Assembly: GCA_038227875.1 (NCBI GenBank)
Contig: JBBRPR010000002.1
Coordinates: 240,169 to 304,168, forward strand
DNA length: 64,000 bases
Reading direction: 5' to 3'
Source of the DNA: Planctomycetota bacterium
GTDB taxonomy: Bacteria; Planctomycetota; SZUA-567; H5-PLA8
Below the pieces are notes generated by a model. The model saw only the letters and a program-made list of their open reading frames with translations. It was not told the origin of the DNA and made no database searches. Of the stretch, positions 44,687 to 49,837 are shown piece by piece (the stretch's first letter is position 1; every line of letters starts with the position of its first letter). A program made the translations under genes and the position numbers.

Positions 44687-45832
44687 ATGCTGAAAATCAA
44701 CATCACCCACCACGACAAGCTCGCCCGTTCCGGCGTCATCACCACCGACCATGGCACGATCGATACGCCCAGCTTCATGACCGTCGGCACGTTGGGCGCG
44801 CCAAAGGGCGTCACCCCCAAGGACGTGCTCGAGCACGGCGGACAAGTGCTGCTGATGAACGCCTTCCATCTCGCCTGGCGGCCGGGTGAGGAGCGCGTGA
44901 AGCGCCTGGGTGGGCTGCATAAGTTCTGCGGCTGGCCCGGGCCGATTCTCACCGACTCCGGCGGCTTCCAGATCTTCTCGCTGCCCGGTCTGCGCAAAAT
45001 CACCGACGAAGGTGCGCTCTTCGCCAGCCCGGTCGACGGCCTGATGCGCCTGTTCTCGCCGGAAGCCGTGGTCGACATTCAATGCGCGCTCGGGCCGGAT
45101 ATCGCGATGGTGCTCGATGAGTGTCCGGCTTTTCCGTGCACGCCGGCGGAACTCAGCGGCGCTGTCGACCGCAGCGTACGCTGGGCGCAGCGCTCGTACA
45201 CGCGCTGGAAAGACGTCGCGCCGCCGCACGTCAATCTCTTCGGCATCGTGCAGGGCGGTTTCAACGAACAGGAACGGCAGCGCTCGCTGGAAGCCACGGC
45301 GGCGATCCCCTTCGCGGGGTTGGCGCTCGGCGGATTCTGCGTCGGCGAAACCATCGAGGACACGCACCGCGGCATCGCCTTTACCGCGCCGAAAATGCCG
45401 GCCGAACGGCCGCGCTACCTGATGGGCATGGGCACGCCGGCCGATATCCTCCACGCGGTCGCGCACGGCATCGATCTCTTCGACTGCACCATCCCGACGC
45501 GCAACGGGCGCAACGGGCTGGCGTTCACCTCCGTCGGCCGCGTGCGCGTGAAGAACACCAAGCACAGCGACGACCCGTCGCCGCTCGATCCCAACTGCAA
45601 TTGCTATACCTGCACCAATTACGGGCGGGGCTTCCTCAGGCATTTGTCGCTTGCCCGTGAATTGAACGCGGCTATCTTGGTCTCTCTTCACAACTTGGCC
45701 TTCTATTTCAATCTCATGAAAGGAATACGAGAGGCCATTCGGGAGCAGCGGTTTTCGCAATACAGTTCGGATTTCATGGCGCGCTGGAATGCCGCATCTG
45801 AACCCGATGGCGACGAGGCCGACGACGCGTAA
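44687..45832 (+). CDS. tgt: tRNA-guanine transglycosylase
   Basis: 'TDSGGFQ', 'LDEC', 'GIVQGG', 'PRYLMGMG', 'FDC..PTRNGR', zinc site 'CNCYTC...HN'. Confidence 0.96.
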   Translation: MLKINITHHDKLARSGVITTDHGTIDTPSFMTVGTLGAPKGVTPKDVLEHGGQVLLMNAFHLAWRPGEERVKRLGGLHKFCGWPGPILTDSGGFQIFSLPGLRKITDEGALFASPVDGLMRLFSPEAVVDIQCALGPDIAMVLDECPAFPCTPAELSGAVDRSVRWAQRSYTRWKDVAPPHVNLFGIVQGGFNEQERQRSLEATAAIPFAGLALGGFCVGETIEDTHRGIAFTAPKMPAERPRYLMGMGTPADILHAVAHGIDLFDCTIPTRNGRNGLAFTSVGRVRVKNTKHSDDPSPLDPNCNCYTCTNYGRGFLRHLSLARELNAAILVSLHNLAFYFNLMKGIREAIREQRFSQYSSDFMARWNAASEPDGDEADDA

Positions 45833-45856
45833 CGCATAAAGGATCGACTACAGACC

Positions 45857-46249
45857 GTGGCAGATTCAAACAACACCACCGCAACACAAGGCACACCCAG
45901 CCCCGCGACTGGCACCGGAACGGGCACAGGCACAGGCGGCGCCGGACAGGGAGCTGGCTCGCCGTTCGATCCAGGCATGCTGCTGATGTTCGGTTCGATG
46001 GCGATCTTGTTCTGGCTGTTCATCGTCCGCCCGGAAAAGAAACGTCAGAAGGAAAAAGAAGCACTCACCTCCTCGCTGAAAAAGAGCGATAAAGTCGTCA
46101 CGATCTTCGGCATGTACGGCACGATCGTCGACATCGACGGCGAAGACATCACGCTGATGGTCGATCAGAAGAAGGAAGTCAAGATGCGCGTGCGGCGCAG
46201 CGCGATCGACCAGGTCCTGGTCGAGGAAACGAAGGAATCCAGGAAGTGA
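45857..46249 (+). CDS. yajC: Preprotein translocase subunit YajC
   Basis: TM helix then 'RPEKKRQK', 'LKKSDKVVTIFGMYGTI'; tgt-yajC-secD synteny. Confidence 0.95.
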   Translation: MADSNNTTATQGTPSPATGTGTGTGTGGAGQGAGSPFDPGMLLMFGSMAILFWLFIVRPEKKRQKEKEALTSSLKKSDKVVTIFGMYGTIVDIDGEDITLMVDQKKEVKMRVRRSAIDQVLVEETKESRK

Positions 46250-46704
46250 AGCAGTCCGACGCCAAGACTACTGGCCGCGCCATTCCGCTGTTCTCCGCGG
46301 TCGCGGCGTTGATGTCGCTGCTGACGGCCGCCGCTGGGCCGTTCTCGCAGACCGTCAAAGTGGTTCGCGTCGACTCCGCCACGCCGGAAAACCGGACCGG
46401 CGACTTCGAGCTGGAAATCAGCGCCATCGATCTGGCGCCAAAGCCGGAAGACACCTCTTCAAAGCCGAAGCAGCAGACGCATTCGCAGTCCGCGCCGGAG
46501 AAGTCCGCGAAGATCGTGCAGCCGCTCAGCGGCCATTGGGAATCGGCGGCGCAGATCGACCTGCCGGTGGCCGACGTTCCCGCCGCGACGCCGCTGGTCT
46601 CACCCACGTGGATCCACGCAAGCAGCACCGACGTTCCGAACACTGCAGTTGTCTCCTCGCACCAGGCGCCGATCAAAGCCGGGCGCGCTCCGCCGTACAT
46701 CTAG
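46246..46704 (+). CDS. secDF leader ORF; candidate RAPP-type ribosome arrest peptide
   Basis: Signal-peptide-like N-terminus, RAPP at 46684-46695 two codons before stop, GTGA overlap with yajC. Confidence 0.78.
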   Translation: MKQSDAKTTGRAIPLFSAVAALMSLLTAAAGPFSQTVKVVRVDSATPENRTGDFELEISAIDLAPKPEDTSSKPKQQTHSQSAPEKSAKIVQPLSGHWESAAQIDLPVADVPAATPLVSPTWIHASSTDVPNTAVVSSHQAPIKAGRAPPYI

Positions 46705-46858
46705 GCTCAACTCCTGCCGCACGAGCCTGGAGCTCATCCGCGGCGACACTCACACACAAAAATCGGCGGCCATTTGCTGCTGATGTTCGAATTTTGGCTC
46801 TGCTGCCGCCGTCCGCCTGTGCTGACGCGGTGCAGCATTTAGAACGAGGTGACGTCAC

Positions 46859-49837
46859 ATGGAAGGCACTTTCAGCGCGCTGTTGCCTGTTGCGATCGGC
46901 ATTTTTGCCATCGCCACGGCGCTCTACAGCGGTATGTCGTACGGCTTCTACCATTTCGGATCGACCCTGCTGGGCCTGGGTTTTCTCTTCGGCCTGTTCC
47001 TGATTTTCGCGATCCTGATCCGGGCATCGCGCGGCTTCTTCAATCGCTTTGCCGGCCGCATCAACTTTGCGCTCTTCCTCATCGCCGTGCTCGGCGCCTA
47101 CTTCGCCTTCCTCTTTCAAGAAGGCAAGTACCCGATGGGCATCGACCTCGCCGGCGGAACGGAGCTGATCTACCGACTCGACTACACGCGCGCCAAGGAA
47201 AACATTGCGCGCACGAATGAACGGTTGACTGCCGAACGGGCGAAGGATTCCGAGTCCAAGGAAACCAAGAATCTCTCGTCGCAGATCGCAAATCTGGAGC
47301 AGGGCATCAAGACCGCGCCGGAAAAGGCCGCTGAAGTCGTCCGCCGCCGCATCGATCCGACCGGCACGAAGGGCATTCCCGTCACCACGCTCGGTAGCGC
47401 CCGCGAACGCCTGCGCATCCAGTTGCCCAAGGCCACGCCGCAGGAAGTCGAACGCATCAAGCAGGCGATCCAGACCCGCGGCCGCCTCGCCTTCCACATC
47501 GCCACCGACGACCAGACCATTATCCAGCAGGTCCAGCAGAGCACGACCAAGCCCAAGGTTTCTCCCGACGGCCAGTACGAAGAAAAGATCATCGAGAACA
47601 AGAAGACCATCAGCGGCGAAAAGTCCGAAGAAAAGATTTACGTCAAGCGCGTGCCCGACATGGACGGCTCCCACGTGGCGCTGGCCGTGGCGCGCCCGAG
47701 CCACGAAAGTTCGAGCTGGGAAATCGGCTTGAGCTTCGATGCCACCGGCGGCGTGGAATTCGGTCAGCTCACGCAGCGCAGCATCAAGAAGCGCATGGCC
47801 ATCGTCCTCGACGACGAAGCCAAGTCCGCGCCGACGATTCAGGAACAGATCAACAGTGAATGTCGCATCAGCGGCAGCTTTACCCAGAAGGAAGCCGAAG
47901 AACTGGCCGCCGTGCTCACGGCCGGCTCGCTCCCGGCTGAAGTGAAGCCGGAAAGTGAAATCCAGGTCGGTCCCAGCCTCGGCCAGGAACAGATCAGCAG
48001 CGGCATGCTGGCCACGGTGATCGGTACCGGCGTCGTCATCGTCTTCATGCTCATCTATTACCGTTTCTCGGGTTTGGTGGCGAGCTTCTGCATGCTGCTG
48101 AATCTCCCGATGTTGCTGGGCGCGATGGGCTTCTTCAAAGCCACGCTGACACTGCCGGGCATCGCTGGAATCGTGCTGACGCTGGGCATGGCCGTGGACG
48201 CCAACGTGCTGATCATCGAGCGTCTGCGCGAAGAATTGGCGCGTGGGCGGTCTCTGCGACAAGCCGTCACCCACGGTTTCGACCGCGCCTTCCTGACCAT
48301 CATCGACTGTCATTCCACGACGTTGATCTCGTCGATCATTCTCTACTATCTCGGTACGGGCCCGGTGCGCGGATTCGCGGTGTCGCTGTCGGTCGGAATT
48401 CTGACGACGCTGTTCTGCAATCTGTGGCTCAACTGGTTGATCATGGACTGGCTGGTCAGCCGCGACGCGGTGCCGAGCCTGAACATGATGCAGTTCTTCA
48501 AGGCCACGAACATCGACTTCATGGGCCAGCGCAAGATCTGGATGGCGATCACCGGCGCGCTGGCTCTGGGATCGATCATTCTCTTCGCGGTCGATCAGAA
48601 GGATCTTTACGACGTCGATTTCACCGGCGGCACGCGCATCCAGTTCAACTTTGCTCAAGGCAAATCGCAGAACCAGGATGAAGTGCGCAAGACTGTCGAA
48701 ACCAAGGTCGCGCAGCAATTGAAAACCAAGCAAGCCGCGGCGCTGGGCACGGAGGGCGTGGAACTGCAGGTGCAGTCGTTCGGCCAGCCGGAAACCGGCA
48801 CCAAGGACAAGTTCCGCAGCTACACGGTGACGACGCGCATCACCAATCCCGACGTGATCGAAGAACTGAGCAAGGACTTGATCGAACAGTTCAAGGCCGA
48901 TCTCGAACCCGATGCCGTGACGGTGACGGAGAAGAACATCGACGTGCGCTTGAATCAGGCCAGCGGTCTGAAGGCCGAAGACGCCAAGGCGCGCGTCAAC
49001 GCCGCGATTGCCGCTGCAGCCGCCGATCCGGGCAATCTGGAAATCAAGCCGTCGCTGGATGTATTGAAGGCGGCCGACGCGAAGACCGACAACGGCTACT
49101 ACCTGGTCGAACTGGGACCGGTGCCGGTCGATCCAGCGGTGAAAGCGAAAGTTGTTACGCTGGTCGCCGCCACCAAGATCGCCGACCGCGCCGACGGTGC
49201 GATCAGCCGCAAGGACGCGTTCGGCGCGCAGGTCGCCGGCGAAATGTGGAAGCAGGCTCTGCTGGCCCTGATCCTGGCCAACACAGCCGTGTTTATCTAC
49301 ATCTGGTTCCGCTTCGAGTTCTCCGGGGCGTGGGGTTTTGGCGCGATTGTGGCGCTGATCCACGACACGGTGATCGCGACGGGCGGCGTGGTGCTGCTGC
49401 ACATGCTCGCGCCGATCACGGGCTTCCAGATCCGCATCGACCTGAACATCGTCGCGGCGCTCCTTACCATCACCGGCTTCAGCGTCAACGATACGATCGT
49501 GGTCTTCGACCGTATCCGCGAAGTGAAGCTGGCGCATCCGACTCGAACCTACGAGGAAATCGTGAACGAAGCGGTCAACGCGACGCTGAGCCGCACGATT
49601 CTCACCAGCTTGACGGTGCTGCTGGCCGACGCGAGCTTGCTGATTTTCGGCGGCCCGACGATCCGCGGCATGGCGTACACGCTGCTGGTTGGGTTCTCGG
49701 TGGGAACGTACAGCTCCATCTTCATCGCCGCGCCGTTGATGATCTGGTGGTACCGCAAGTTCGGTGGCGGCAAGGCCGCTGCCCCGAGCACGCCGGTTCC
49801 CGCGGGCACCATTTCGGCCAAGGGCGCGCAGATCTAA
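46859..49837 (+). CDS. secDF: Fused protein translocase subunit SecDF
   Basis: 'GIDLAGG', 'MAIVLD', 'AGSLP', 'VGPSLG', 'TLPGIAGIVLTLGMAVDANVLI.ER', 'DFTGG', 'GFSVNDTIVVFDRIRE', 'TLSRT'. Confidence 0.97.
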   Translation: MEGTFSALLPVAIGIFAIATALYSGMSYGFYHFGSTLLGLGFLFGLFLIFAILIRASRGFFNRFAGRINFALFLIAVLGAYFAFLFQEGKYPMGIDLAGGTELIYRLDYTRAKENIARTNERLTAERAKDSESKETKNLSSQIANLEQGIKTAPEKAAEVVRRRIDPTGTKGIPVTTLGSARERLRIQLPKATPQEVERIKQAIQTRGRLAFHIATDDQTIIQQVQQSTTKPKVSPDGQYEEKIIENKKTISGEKSEEKIYVKRVPDMDGSHVALAVARPSHESSSWEIGLSFDATGGVEFGQLTQRSIKKRMAIVLDDEAKSAPTIQEQINSECRISGSFTQKEAEELAAVLTAGSLPAEVKPESEIQVGPSLGQEQISSGMLATVIGTGVVIVFMLIYYRFSGLVASFCMLLNLPMLLGAMGFFKATLTLPGIAGIVLTLGMAVDANVLIIERLREELARGRSLRQAVTHGFDRAFLTIIDCHSTTLISSIILYYLGTGPVRGFAVSLSVGILTTLFCNLWLNWLIMDWLVSRDAVPSLNMMQFFKATNIDFMGQRKIWMAITGALALGSIILFAVDQKDLYDVDFTGGTRIQFNFAQGKSQNQDEVRKTVETKVAQQLKTKQAAALGTEGVELQVQSFGQPETGTKDKFRSYTVTTRITNPDVIEELSKDLIEQFKADLEPDAVTVTEKNIDVRLNQASGLKAEDAKARVNAAIAAAAADPGNLEIKPSLDVLKAADAKTDNGYYLVELGPVPVDPAVKAKVVTLVAATKIADRADGAISRKDAFGAQVAGEMWKQALLALILANTAVFIYIWFRFEFSGAWGFGAIVALIHDTVIATGGVVLLHMLAPITGFQIRIDLNIVAALLTITGFSVNDTIVVFDRIREVKLAHPTRTYEEIVNEAVNATLSRTILTSLTVLLADASLLIFGGPTIRGMAYTLLVGFSVGTYSSIFIAAPLMIWWYRKFGGGKAAAPSTPVPAGTISAKGAQI

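Follow-up and report, generated by a model that had tools for sequence, protein, structure and literature searches.

In a 64,000-nucleotide (nt) stretch of a Planctomycetota contig (JBBRPR010000002.1, hereafter the window), an open reading frame (ORF) of 152 amino acids (aa) separates yajC from the fused gene secDF. From comparison with its relatives, this ORF is probably a RAPP-type ribosome arrest peptide, i.e. an export-monitoring leader for secDF. The ORF list and Pfam searches place it in a plus-strand row made up of tgt, yajC, the leader ORF and secDF (Table 1). Its GTG start at position 46246 shares the letters GTGA (46246-46249) with the stop of yajC, its TAG stop lies at 46702-46704, and the ATG of secDF follows at 46859. 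A preliminary description, made from the letters of the stretch, had proposed a 152-aa ORF coupled to yajC in this way, with a signal-like N-terminus, a low-complexity spacer and the C-terminus PIKAGRAPPYI, standing 154 nt ahead of secDF; all of these features were recovered here. Searches of the leader ORF against Pfam and NCBIfam both returned no family match.

C-terminal motif of the leader family

The whole 9.3-Mb genome containing the window was screened for R[AG]PP within the last 9 residues of six-frame ORFs of 80-300 aa. Only 9 of 28,218 such ORFs carried the motif, and 3 of these 9, the leader included, also had a basic N-terminus and an uncharged hydrophobic 15-mer. The RAPP ending of the leader exceeds chance.

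The taxonomic family of the window's genome is represented by 17 genomes including that one, from an order with 20 genomes in the collection. Because these genomes form a sample of related organisms, counts among them describe a pattern and are not proof of independent events. The leader ends in RGPP in 12 of the family genomes, in RAPP in three (G000, which is the window's genome, G002 and G014), in RPPP in one (G007) and in CGPP in one (G008). R-x-P-P is therefore kept in 16 of the 17; conservation of RAPP in relatives had been named beforehand as one test on which the proposal could fail, and it came through. Where whole, the leader ORF is 138-191 aa long in the family genomes, and the orthologues share 15-25% identity with the window's leader protein. 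Both prolines are invariant across 15 aligned sequences and Arg is present in 14. Moreover, a word-indexed search recovered close relatives of 46-86% identity, all of which end in GRAPP followed by two residues.

When 1.84 billion representative proteins were searched with a profile of the family, 73 matched; 71 of these were short proteins of the leader family's own architecture or fragments of it, and the other 2 were long and unrelated. The two homologues with a source label are both called Planctomycetota. [RH]-x-P-P was found in the last 12 residues of 64 of the 73 matches (46 RGPP, 9 RAPP, 6 RPPP, 2 HGPP and 1 HAPP). The stop follows two residues after the motif in 33 of these 64 and three residues after it in 24 (57 together), and RxPP is always 1-7 residues from the stop. 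The nine matches without [RH]-x-P-P comprise the 2 long unrelated proteins, 3 short fragments, 2 proteins whose C-terminus is absent or differs, 1 protein ending in CGPP (the G008 orthologue) and 1 in TGPP. When the 69 motif-bearing members were aligned, R was kept in 96% and both P in 100%, and the RxPP columns held 3.97 bits each, compared with 1.0-2.2 bits in every other segment. At the level of sequence comparison, this shows strong selection on R-x-P-P, two to three codons before the stop, in an otherwise fast-evolving protein.

The CGPP and TGPP endings show natural substitution of the Arg on which published arrest peptides critically depend, and could be used as built-in controls. In addition, the orthologue from G001 (L003, 1444-1935) carries a further GRAPP inside the protein, about 30 residues ahead of the RGPP at its end (...EPDGRAPPAEF...PPARGPPGLS); this may be a second stall site.

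The leader ORF was found at the yajC-secDF junction in 17 of 17 family genomes. The junction could be read in 15 of them, and in the two with broken contigs the 3′ end of the leader was found before secDF. A second family of the order (2 genomes) has a different arrangement: yajC does not adjoin secDF in either genome, and a signal-bearing ORF before secDF, unalignable with the leader, ends in ...PGDPRGPPLRS or ...PGDPRGPPYRS. Inspection by eye showed these ORFs to be without the mid motif of the window's family (see below). No such leader ORF was recognised in the single genome, 77% complete, of the third family. Three sister families of the class were represented by 21 loci from 21 genomes, three of the loci being cut by contig ends; no ORF of at least 45 aa that ends within 450 nt before secDF carried a RAPP-like motif in its last 14 residues, and tblastn placed yajC immediately upstream of secDF in 14 of the 21. 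Among the matches listed in a YajC scan, mostly from distant phyla, four planctomycete loci from other lineages were usable, and these contained no ORF between yajC and the next gene. Since yajC stands next to secDF in sister-family loci, the leader ORF does look like an insertion into an otherwise contiguous junction, which agrees with the lineage-specific placement put forward in the preliminary description. A metagenome scan with the alignment of close relatives gave 33 pattern matches, of which 0 were confirmed.

Some individual loci are irregular. In G014 (L110, 1360-1830) a stop ends the secDF frame some 119 codons in, and the frame picks up again about 85 nt further on, reflecting either an assembly error or a broken gene. 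In G013 the 3′ end of a leader precedes the 5′ end of a secDF on each of two contigs (L146 and L147; leader endings ...AARGPPNS and ...AARGPPIG), which represents either a strain mixture or a duplicated locus. The window's own genome contains two further, much shorter SecDF-like genes (G000:C93:6059-7474 and G000:C1:297933-298481, both on the minus strand); one encodes 606 aa, and the other is apparently in two pieces (222 + 434 aa). Neither is preceded by a RAPP- or RGPP-ended leader, and therefore the leader goes with the long canonical copy beside yajC.

Ahead of its C-terminus, the window's leader has the build of a short exported protein. Its N-terminus, MKQSDAKTTGR, places the basic residues K2, K7 and R11 ahead of a hydrophobic stretch (L15-F33) which, judged by hydropathy, is presumed to be a signal peptide or an N-in signal anchor; the uncharged hydrophobic stretch has a median length of 21 residues in the 69 members. 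A polar low-complexity middle follows, and the protein closes with ...QAPIKAGRAPPYI. From the end of the hydrophobic segment to the presumed P-site Pro there are 116 residues in the window (family median 114); for established Sec monitors the reported signal-to-arrest medians are 131.5 and 71 for SecM and 133 for VemP (PMC10987492). AlphaFold2, run on a 22-row family alignment, gave a mean predicted local distance difference test (pLDDT) score of 56 and a predicted template modelling (pTM) score of 0.19, with one element of more than four residues, the N-terminal helix (15-29). The other predicted elements are a pair of strands of 3 residues each and a helix of 4 residues (98-101). Such a model gives little indication of a folded domain and fits a leader that is apparently unfolded.

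Conserved segments and relation to known arrest leaders

Two segments outside the arrest site are conserved: a motif just after the signal, which averages 2.2 bits per column in the 69 members, and a mid motif with the consensus RLLKPxxDxWESA (Table 1). The distance from the Trp column of the mid motif to the arrest Arg is exactly 49 residues in 36 of the 69 members and 46-52 residues in 62 of them, although the members are related and these counts are not independent. A distance of 62-67 was obtained for the remaining 7, in which the aligner took a different upstream segment; two of those seven, G012 and G006, have a distance of 46 in a smaller alignment. The stretch between the signal and the mid motif varies from 59 to 77 residues (22 sequences), and the 49 residues between the mid motif and the arrest Arg are poorly conserved (1.0 bit per column). 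A second conserved motif at a nearly fixed distance from the arrest Arg may be a new feature.

At the presumed stall the mid motif would lie 48-60 residues from P149, and thus from the peptidyl-transferase centre. Force profiles from Escherichia coli place the point at which translocating chains meet the SecYEG channel or the membrane at about 45 residues (PMC7886326); the mid motif would be at that point or just past it. We entertain, as a speculative extension that we think rather unlikely to be right, a two-module arrest leader with a built-in ruler, in which the mid motif, and not the N-terminal signal, would be the handle for the pulling force. Such a leader would report specifically on SecDF or proton-motive-force activity and would signal to secDF without unmasking of a ribosome-binding site. 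The force could come from the periplasmic head of SecDF, or from the membrane potential acting on acidic residues of the mid motif, which is amphipathic and acidic and is not a membrane span. Complex prediction with the SecDF periplasmic domain and the mature leader gave no call either way (score 0.00). While the spacing is observed, a handle role for the mid motif would be the boldest reading of it. The fixed spacing makes it simple to test at which point of the nascent chain the releasing force acts.

Leaders of a comparable kind have been described. ApdA and ApdP are RAPP leaders before secDF (Sakiyama et al. 2021, PMC7897499), and the structures and mechanism of RAPP stalling were reported by Morici et al. 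2024 (PMC10951233), whose geometry is used here. From a four-criterion screen of 30,175 genomes, Fujiwara et al. 2024 (Nat Commun, PMC10987492) described an 'RQH family' of RAPP, RGPP, HAPP and QAPP leaders, which forms 19 order-level groups (11 of them before secDF), plus orphans, in nine phyla. Arrest by RQH leaders was demonstrated in vitro and in vivo, and an RGPP leader of Alteromonas showed arrest-dependent induction of secDF2 via a stem-loop that masks the ribosome-binding site (PMC10987492). A 2025 paper reports that RAPP and RGPP stall the ribosomes of several species robustly and are refractory to EF-P, that both are strongly avoided in proteomes unless used for arrest, and that they lie close to the C-terminal end of small secretory proteins encoded ahead of genes of many kinds; one row of its supplement counts 1,074 RAPP ORFs before genes called SecD (PMC12992588). 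In the main text of PMC10987492, Planctomycetota are mentioned for uA_LPPP alone, and the searchable supplements gave only the genome list and tested constructs. Six C-terminal strings of the leader family were not found in part of one supplementary file of PMC12992588, which does not imply their absence.

The published in-silico definition of the uDF_RQH kind can be compared directly with the leader. It is a small ORF (below 300 aa; 152 aa here) that lies directly before secDF on the same strand, across 154 nt, and has no annotated function. An N-terminal secretion signal or transmembrane segment is present by proxy (hydropathy and the AlphaFold2 helix), a RAPP-like motif is conserved at the C-terminus (16/17 genomes; 64/73 matches), and the spacer from signal to C-terminal motif is 116 residues, where more than 30 are called for. 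In agreement with all four published criteria, the leader is very probably a new member of the known RAPP-like uDF_RQH kind rather than a new kind; the kind itself has already been described at large scale. Described examples include uDF_RQH_Enterobacterales of Alteromonas naphthalenivorans (R125GPP) and uDF_RQH_Desulfuromonadales (RAPP), and the leader resembles them in being an unannotated small ORF immediately 5′ of secDF, with an N-terminal localisation signal, a spacer that is long and variable, a RAPP or RGPP motif within a few residues of the stop, and a patchy distribution at the level of orders (PMC10987492). It differs in that its family comes from a small planctomycete order and in the fixed distance at which a second conserved motif stands from the arrest site. 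Moreover, the Alteromonas leader has a stem-loop masking the secDF2 ribosome-binding site (PMC10987492), whereas none is predicted here.

Likeness to other arrest peptides is more partial. The leader shares with ApdA (Actinomycetota) and ApdP (Alphaproteobacteria) a RAPP near the C-terminus of a signal-bearing protein before secDF, likewise without a predicted hairpin that would sequester the ribosome-binding site (PMC7897499). The profile search brought up no sequence relationship to either, its short matches being all of the planctomycete family's own architecture or fragments of it. However, the ApdA homologue of Streptomyces is described as having no conserved motif outside the arrest site (PMC12992588), whereas the planctomycete leader family has two. 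SecM of E. coli is also an exported leader with a C-terminal arrest (R-A-G-P) that export relieves and through which a Sec component is controlled, but its motif is RAGP and not RAPP, the gene it regulates is secA, its arrest sequence extends over about 17 residues and it works by way of a defined secM-secA stem-loop. The leader does not belong to the SecM class, i.e. RAGP leaders before secA, as it carries RAPP and is followed by secDF. VemP of Vibrio resembles it as an exported leader before secD2F2. MifM of Bacillus subtilis resembles it in a narrow distance between force segment and arrest (median 54, PMC10987492), compared with a fixed 51 from mid motif to P site here. The arrest sequences of both VemP and MifM are unrelated to RAPP, and MifM monitors YidC through a transmembrane segment, whereas the mid motif of the leader is amphipathic.

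If this reading is true, planctomycetes of this order adjust SecDF, a proton-driven export booster, by means of a short stalling motif. The same motif would have evolved independently in actinomycetes, alphaproteobacteria and others, and one more lineage would be added to a striking case of convergent evolution. In annotation, the label 'candidate arrest leader' should replace 'hypothetical protein' for the leader ORF and for its relatives, which number roughly 70.

Possible coupling to secDF and alternative explanations

Under the proposed mechanism, the N-terminal signal, 116 residues away, would already be engaged with the Sec translocon when arrest occurs. Active export would pull on the chain and release the arrest, while slow export would hold the ribosome in place, parked on the stop codon and the first spacer bases. 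By analogy with published stalls, a ribosome with codon 149 in the P site would cover the stop, a few bases beyond it and the 5′ arm of a predicted 9-bp hairpin (Table 1). The least certain step is the last, by which the parked ribosome would lead to higher expression of secDF. As no sequestration of the ribosome-binding site is predicted, this link may run via transcription, e.g. by blocking of Rho on a C-rich tract, or by another route. As far as sequence comparison carries, the earlier proposal of a monitoring substrate for SecDF still stands.

Several results weigh against this reading, beginning with the spacer RNA. Both inverted repeats on which the preliminary description had based a hairpin potential do exist, namely AGGCTC (46703-46708) with GAGCCT (46723-46728), which is part of the 9-bp hairpin over the stop, and CGGCGGC (46764-46770) with GCCGCCG (46805-46811). 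The folding itself was no better than that of shuffled sequence: a 206-nt stretch of the window folds at z = -0.35 against dinucleotide shuffles and the spacer alone at z = -1.21, with 12.5% of shuffles folding as well. Across 17 loci the median spacer z was -1.29, 3 being below -2 and three positive. Masking of the ribosome footprint, which had been suggested as a check, did not make the secDF ribosome-binding site more accessible by prediction: its unpaired probability in the window went from 0.41 to 0.32, and in all 15 loci masking induced only small predicted changes, in both directions, at the ribosome-binding site and start. In none of 17 loci did the best complement to the region around this site outdo more than 83% of shuffles, and the spacers cannot be aligned even within a genus. 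A hairpin switch that sequesters the secDF ribosome-binding site therefore has no support from the masked folding predictions (15 loci) or from the duplex search (17 loci).

In TnaC, a stalled ribosome over the stop codon blocks Rho loading. The same arrest peptide might likewise act on transcription here, the parked ribosome blocking Rho loading or shifting an attenuator hairpin so that RNA polymerase reads into secDF; we regard this as an unlikely version of events. The first 60 nt of the spacer are C-rich and G-poor (C 0.40, G 0.20), and 6 of 15 family loci, that of the window included, have a 50-nt tract in which C exceeds G by 11-17 and which begins 0-5 nt past the stop. Several loci also have, by eye, GC-rich hairpins followed by short U runs before the ribosome-binding site. 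Tract and hairpins are a weak hint of a link at the level of transcription, and such a link would suit the lack of predicted sequestration at secDF. It would also parallel ApdA, ApdP and ApcA, for which no such hairpin was found and a distinct mechanism was suggested (PMC7897499). However, 9 of the 15 loci have no stop-proximal C-rich tract (G015 among them has one 105 nt further on), and the footprint reaches only the first few bases of the tract. Moreover, a promoter and terminator pattern scan of positions 45600-47100 found no terminator-like site, and also no sigma-70-like promoter.

Further points against an export-monitoring arrest leader come from the protein. The signal peptide is called by hydropathy only, and the Arg of the motif is replaced by Cys in the G008 orthologue (L002, oriented 1411-1896) and by Thr in a distant member (P0030). 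As these variants exist, either RxPP can be lost or it is only part of the story. The two conserved motifs that stand far from the stall site suggest that the leader may also have a role as a protein. Both motifs (GPxSQxxRVxE and RLLKPxxDxWESA) lie outside any plausible tunnel contact, the ORF sits in an operon of translocon subunits, and G008 retains the ORF despite its Cys, all of which would suit a small accessory protein of the YajC-SecDF complex that is exported or anchored in the membrane. RxPP would then be kept for a non-regulatory reason, e.g. slowed termination for co-translational targeting, or as a binding tail. We consider this account improbable, as AlphaFold2 predicts no confident fold and most of the sequence varies freely while RxPP is nearly invariant and always within 1-7 residues of the stop; RAPP and RGPP are, in addition, the motifs reported to be avoided in proteomes unless used for arrest (PMC12992588). 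An accessory role is nonetheless compatible with arrest, and both could hold.

Lastly, the leader could be a chance open frame in GC-rich DNA that is never translated. Long frames do arise easily here, as shown by a 173-aa antisense frame (46179-46700, minus strand) which spans nearly all of the leader ORF and is probably a by-product of GC-rich coding sequence. However, the same junction is occupied in 17 of 17 genomes by an ORF with the same N-terminal, middle and C-terminal motifs, 69 motif-bearing members exist in public data, and the ORF is served by a Shine-Dalgarno-like box of its own, with its start coupled to the stop of yajC. For practical purposes the comparative data refute a chance frame, to which we assign next to no probability.

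Locus features and further leaders in the genome

The features of the locus are collected in Table 1. A purine-rich box containing GGA lies a few bases 5′ of the secDF ATG in 15 of 15 relatives examined.

Table 1. Coordinates, in window positions, of the leader ORF, its parts and its neighbours.
Feature	Position	Strand	Basis and remarks
tgt (queuine tRNA-ribosyltransferase), first gene of the row	44687..45832	+	Pfam PF01702, E 3.4e-134
yajC	45857..46249	+	Pfam PF02699, E 2.2e-23; TGA stop overlapped by the leader GTG
AAGGAA, Shine-Dalgarno-like box about 9 nt 5′ of the leader GTG	46232..46237	+	sequence
Leader ORF, 152 aa, candidate arrest peptide/monitoring substrate	46246..46704	+	ORF list, syntenic relatives, profile search
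Uncharged hydrophobic segment L15-F33, 19 residues (LFSAVAALMSLLTAAAGPF)	46288..46344	+	sequence; AlphaFold2 helix 15-29
Post-signal motif G31-P32-x-S/A-Q35-x-L/V-R/K-V-x-E/R	46336..46377	+	P32 in 87% and Q35 in 72% of 69 members
Mid motif K89-A101 (KIVQPLSGHWESA; consensus RLLKPxxDxWESA)	46510..46548	+	gapless, 2.0 bits per column
CGC GCT CCG CCG = R147-A148-P149-P150, presumed arrest module	46684..46695	+	sequence, family conservation
Predicted 9-bp hairpin, 46700-46708 paired with 46723-46731, includes the TAG stop	46700..46731	+	minimum free energy fold
Spacer between leader and secDF, 154 nt	46705..46858	+	sequence
GAGGTGA, Shine-Dalgarno box of secDF, 7-13 nt 5′ of the ATG	46846..46852	+	sequence
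Fused secDF, 992 aa, presumed regulated gene	46859..49837	+	Pfam SecD_SecF_C, SecDF_P1_head, Sec_GG, SecD_1st

Environmental sequence data touch the locus at a few points. Contigs of two environmental runs carry G>A at spacer position 46851, between the Shine-Dalgarno box and the start of secDF (GAGGTGACG -> GAGGTAACG). Four DNA sequencing runs gave short fragments; the bins covering 46610-46717, i.e. the arrest region, had zero depth, and the rest of the leader ORF was covered by short pieces, mostly of less than 90% identity.

Two more small ORFs with similar endings were observed in the window's genome. A second signal-bearing ORF of 116 aa (G000:C17:34288-34638, plus strand; L159:1501-1851) is His-rich after its signal and ends in ...PPGRGPPANTFA. 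It precedes a 455-aa protein of no assigned function, a ZnuA-type metal-binding protein and an ABC-3 permease, a context that fits the published link between RGPP leaders and metal homeostasis. The third such ORF (G000:C51; L160:3501-3878, minus strand) encodes 125 aa and ends in ...PPSRAPPVA. Its N-terminus resembles that of the second, and it precedes an ABC ATPase, an FtsX-type permease and a small His-rich exported protein.

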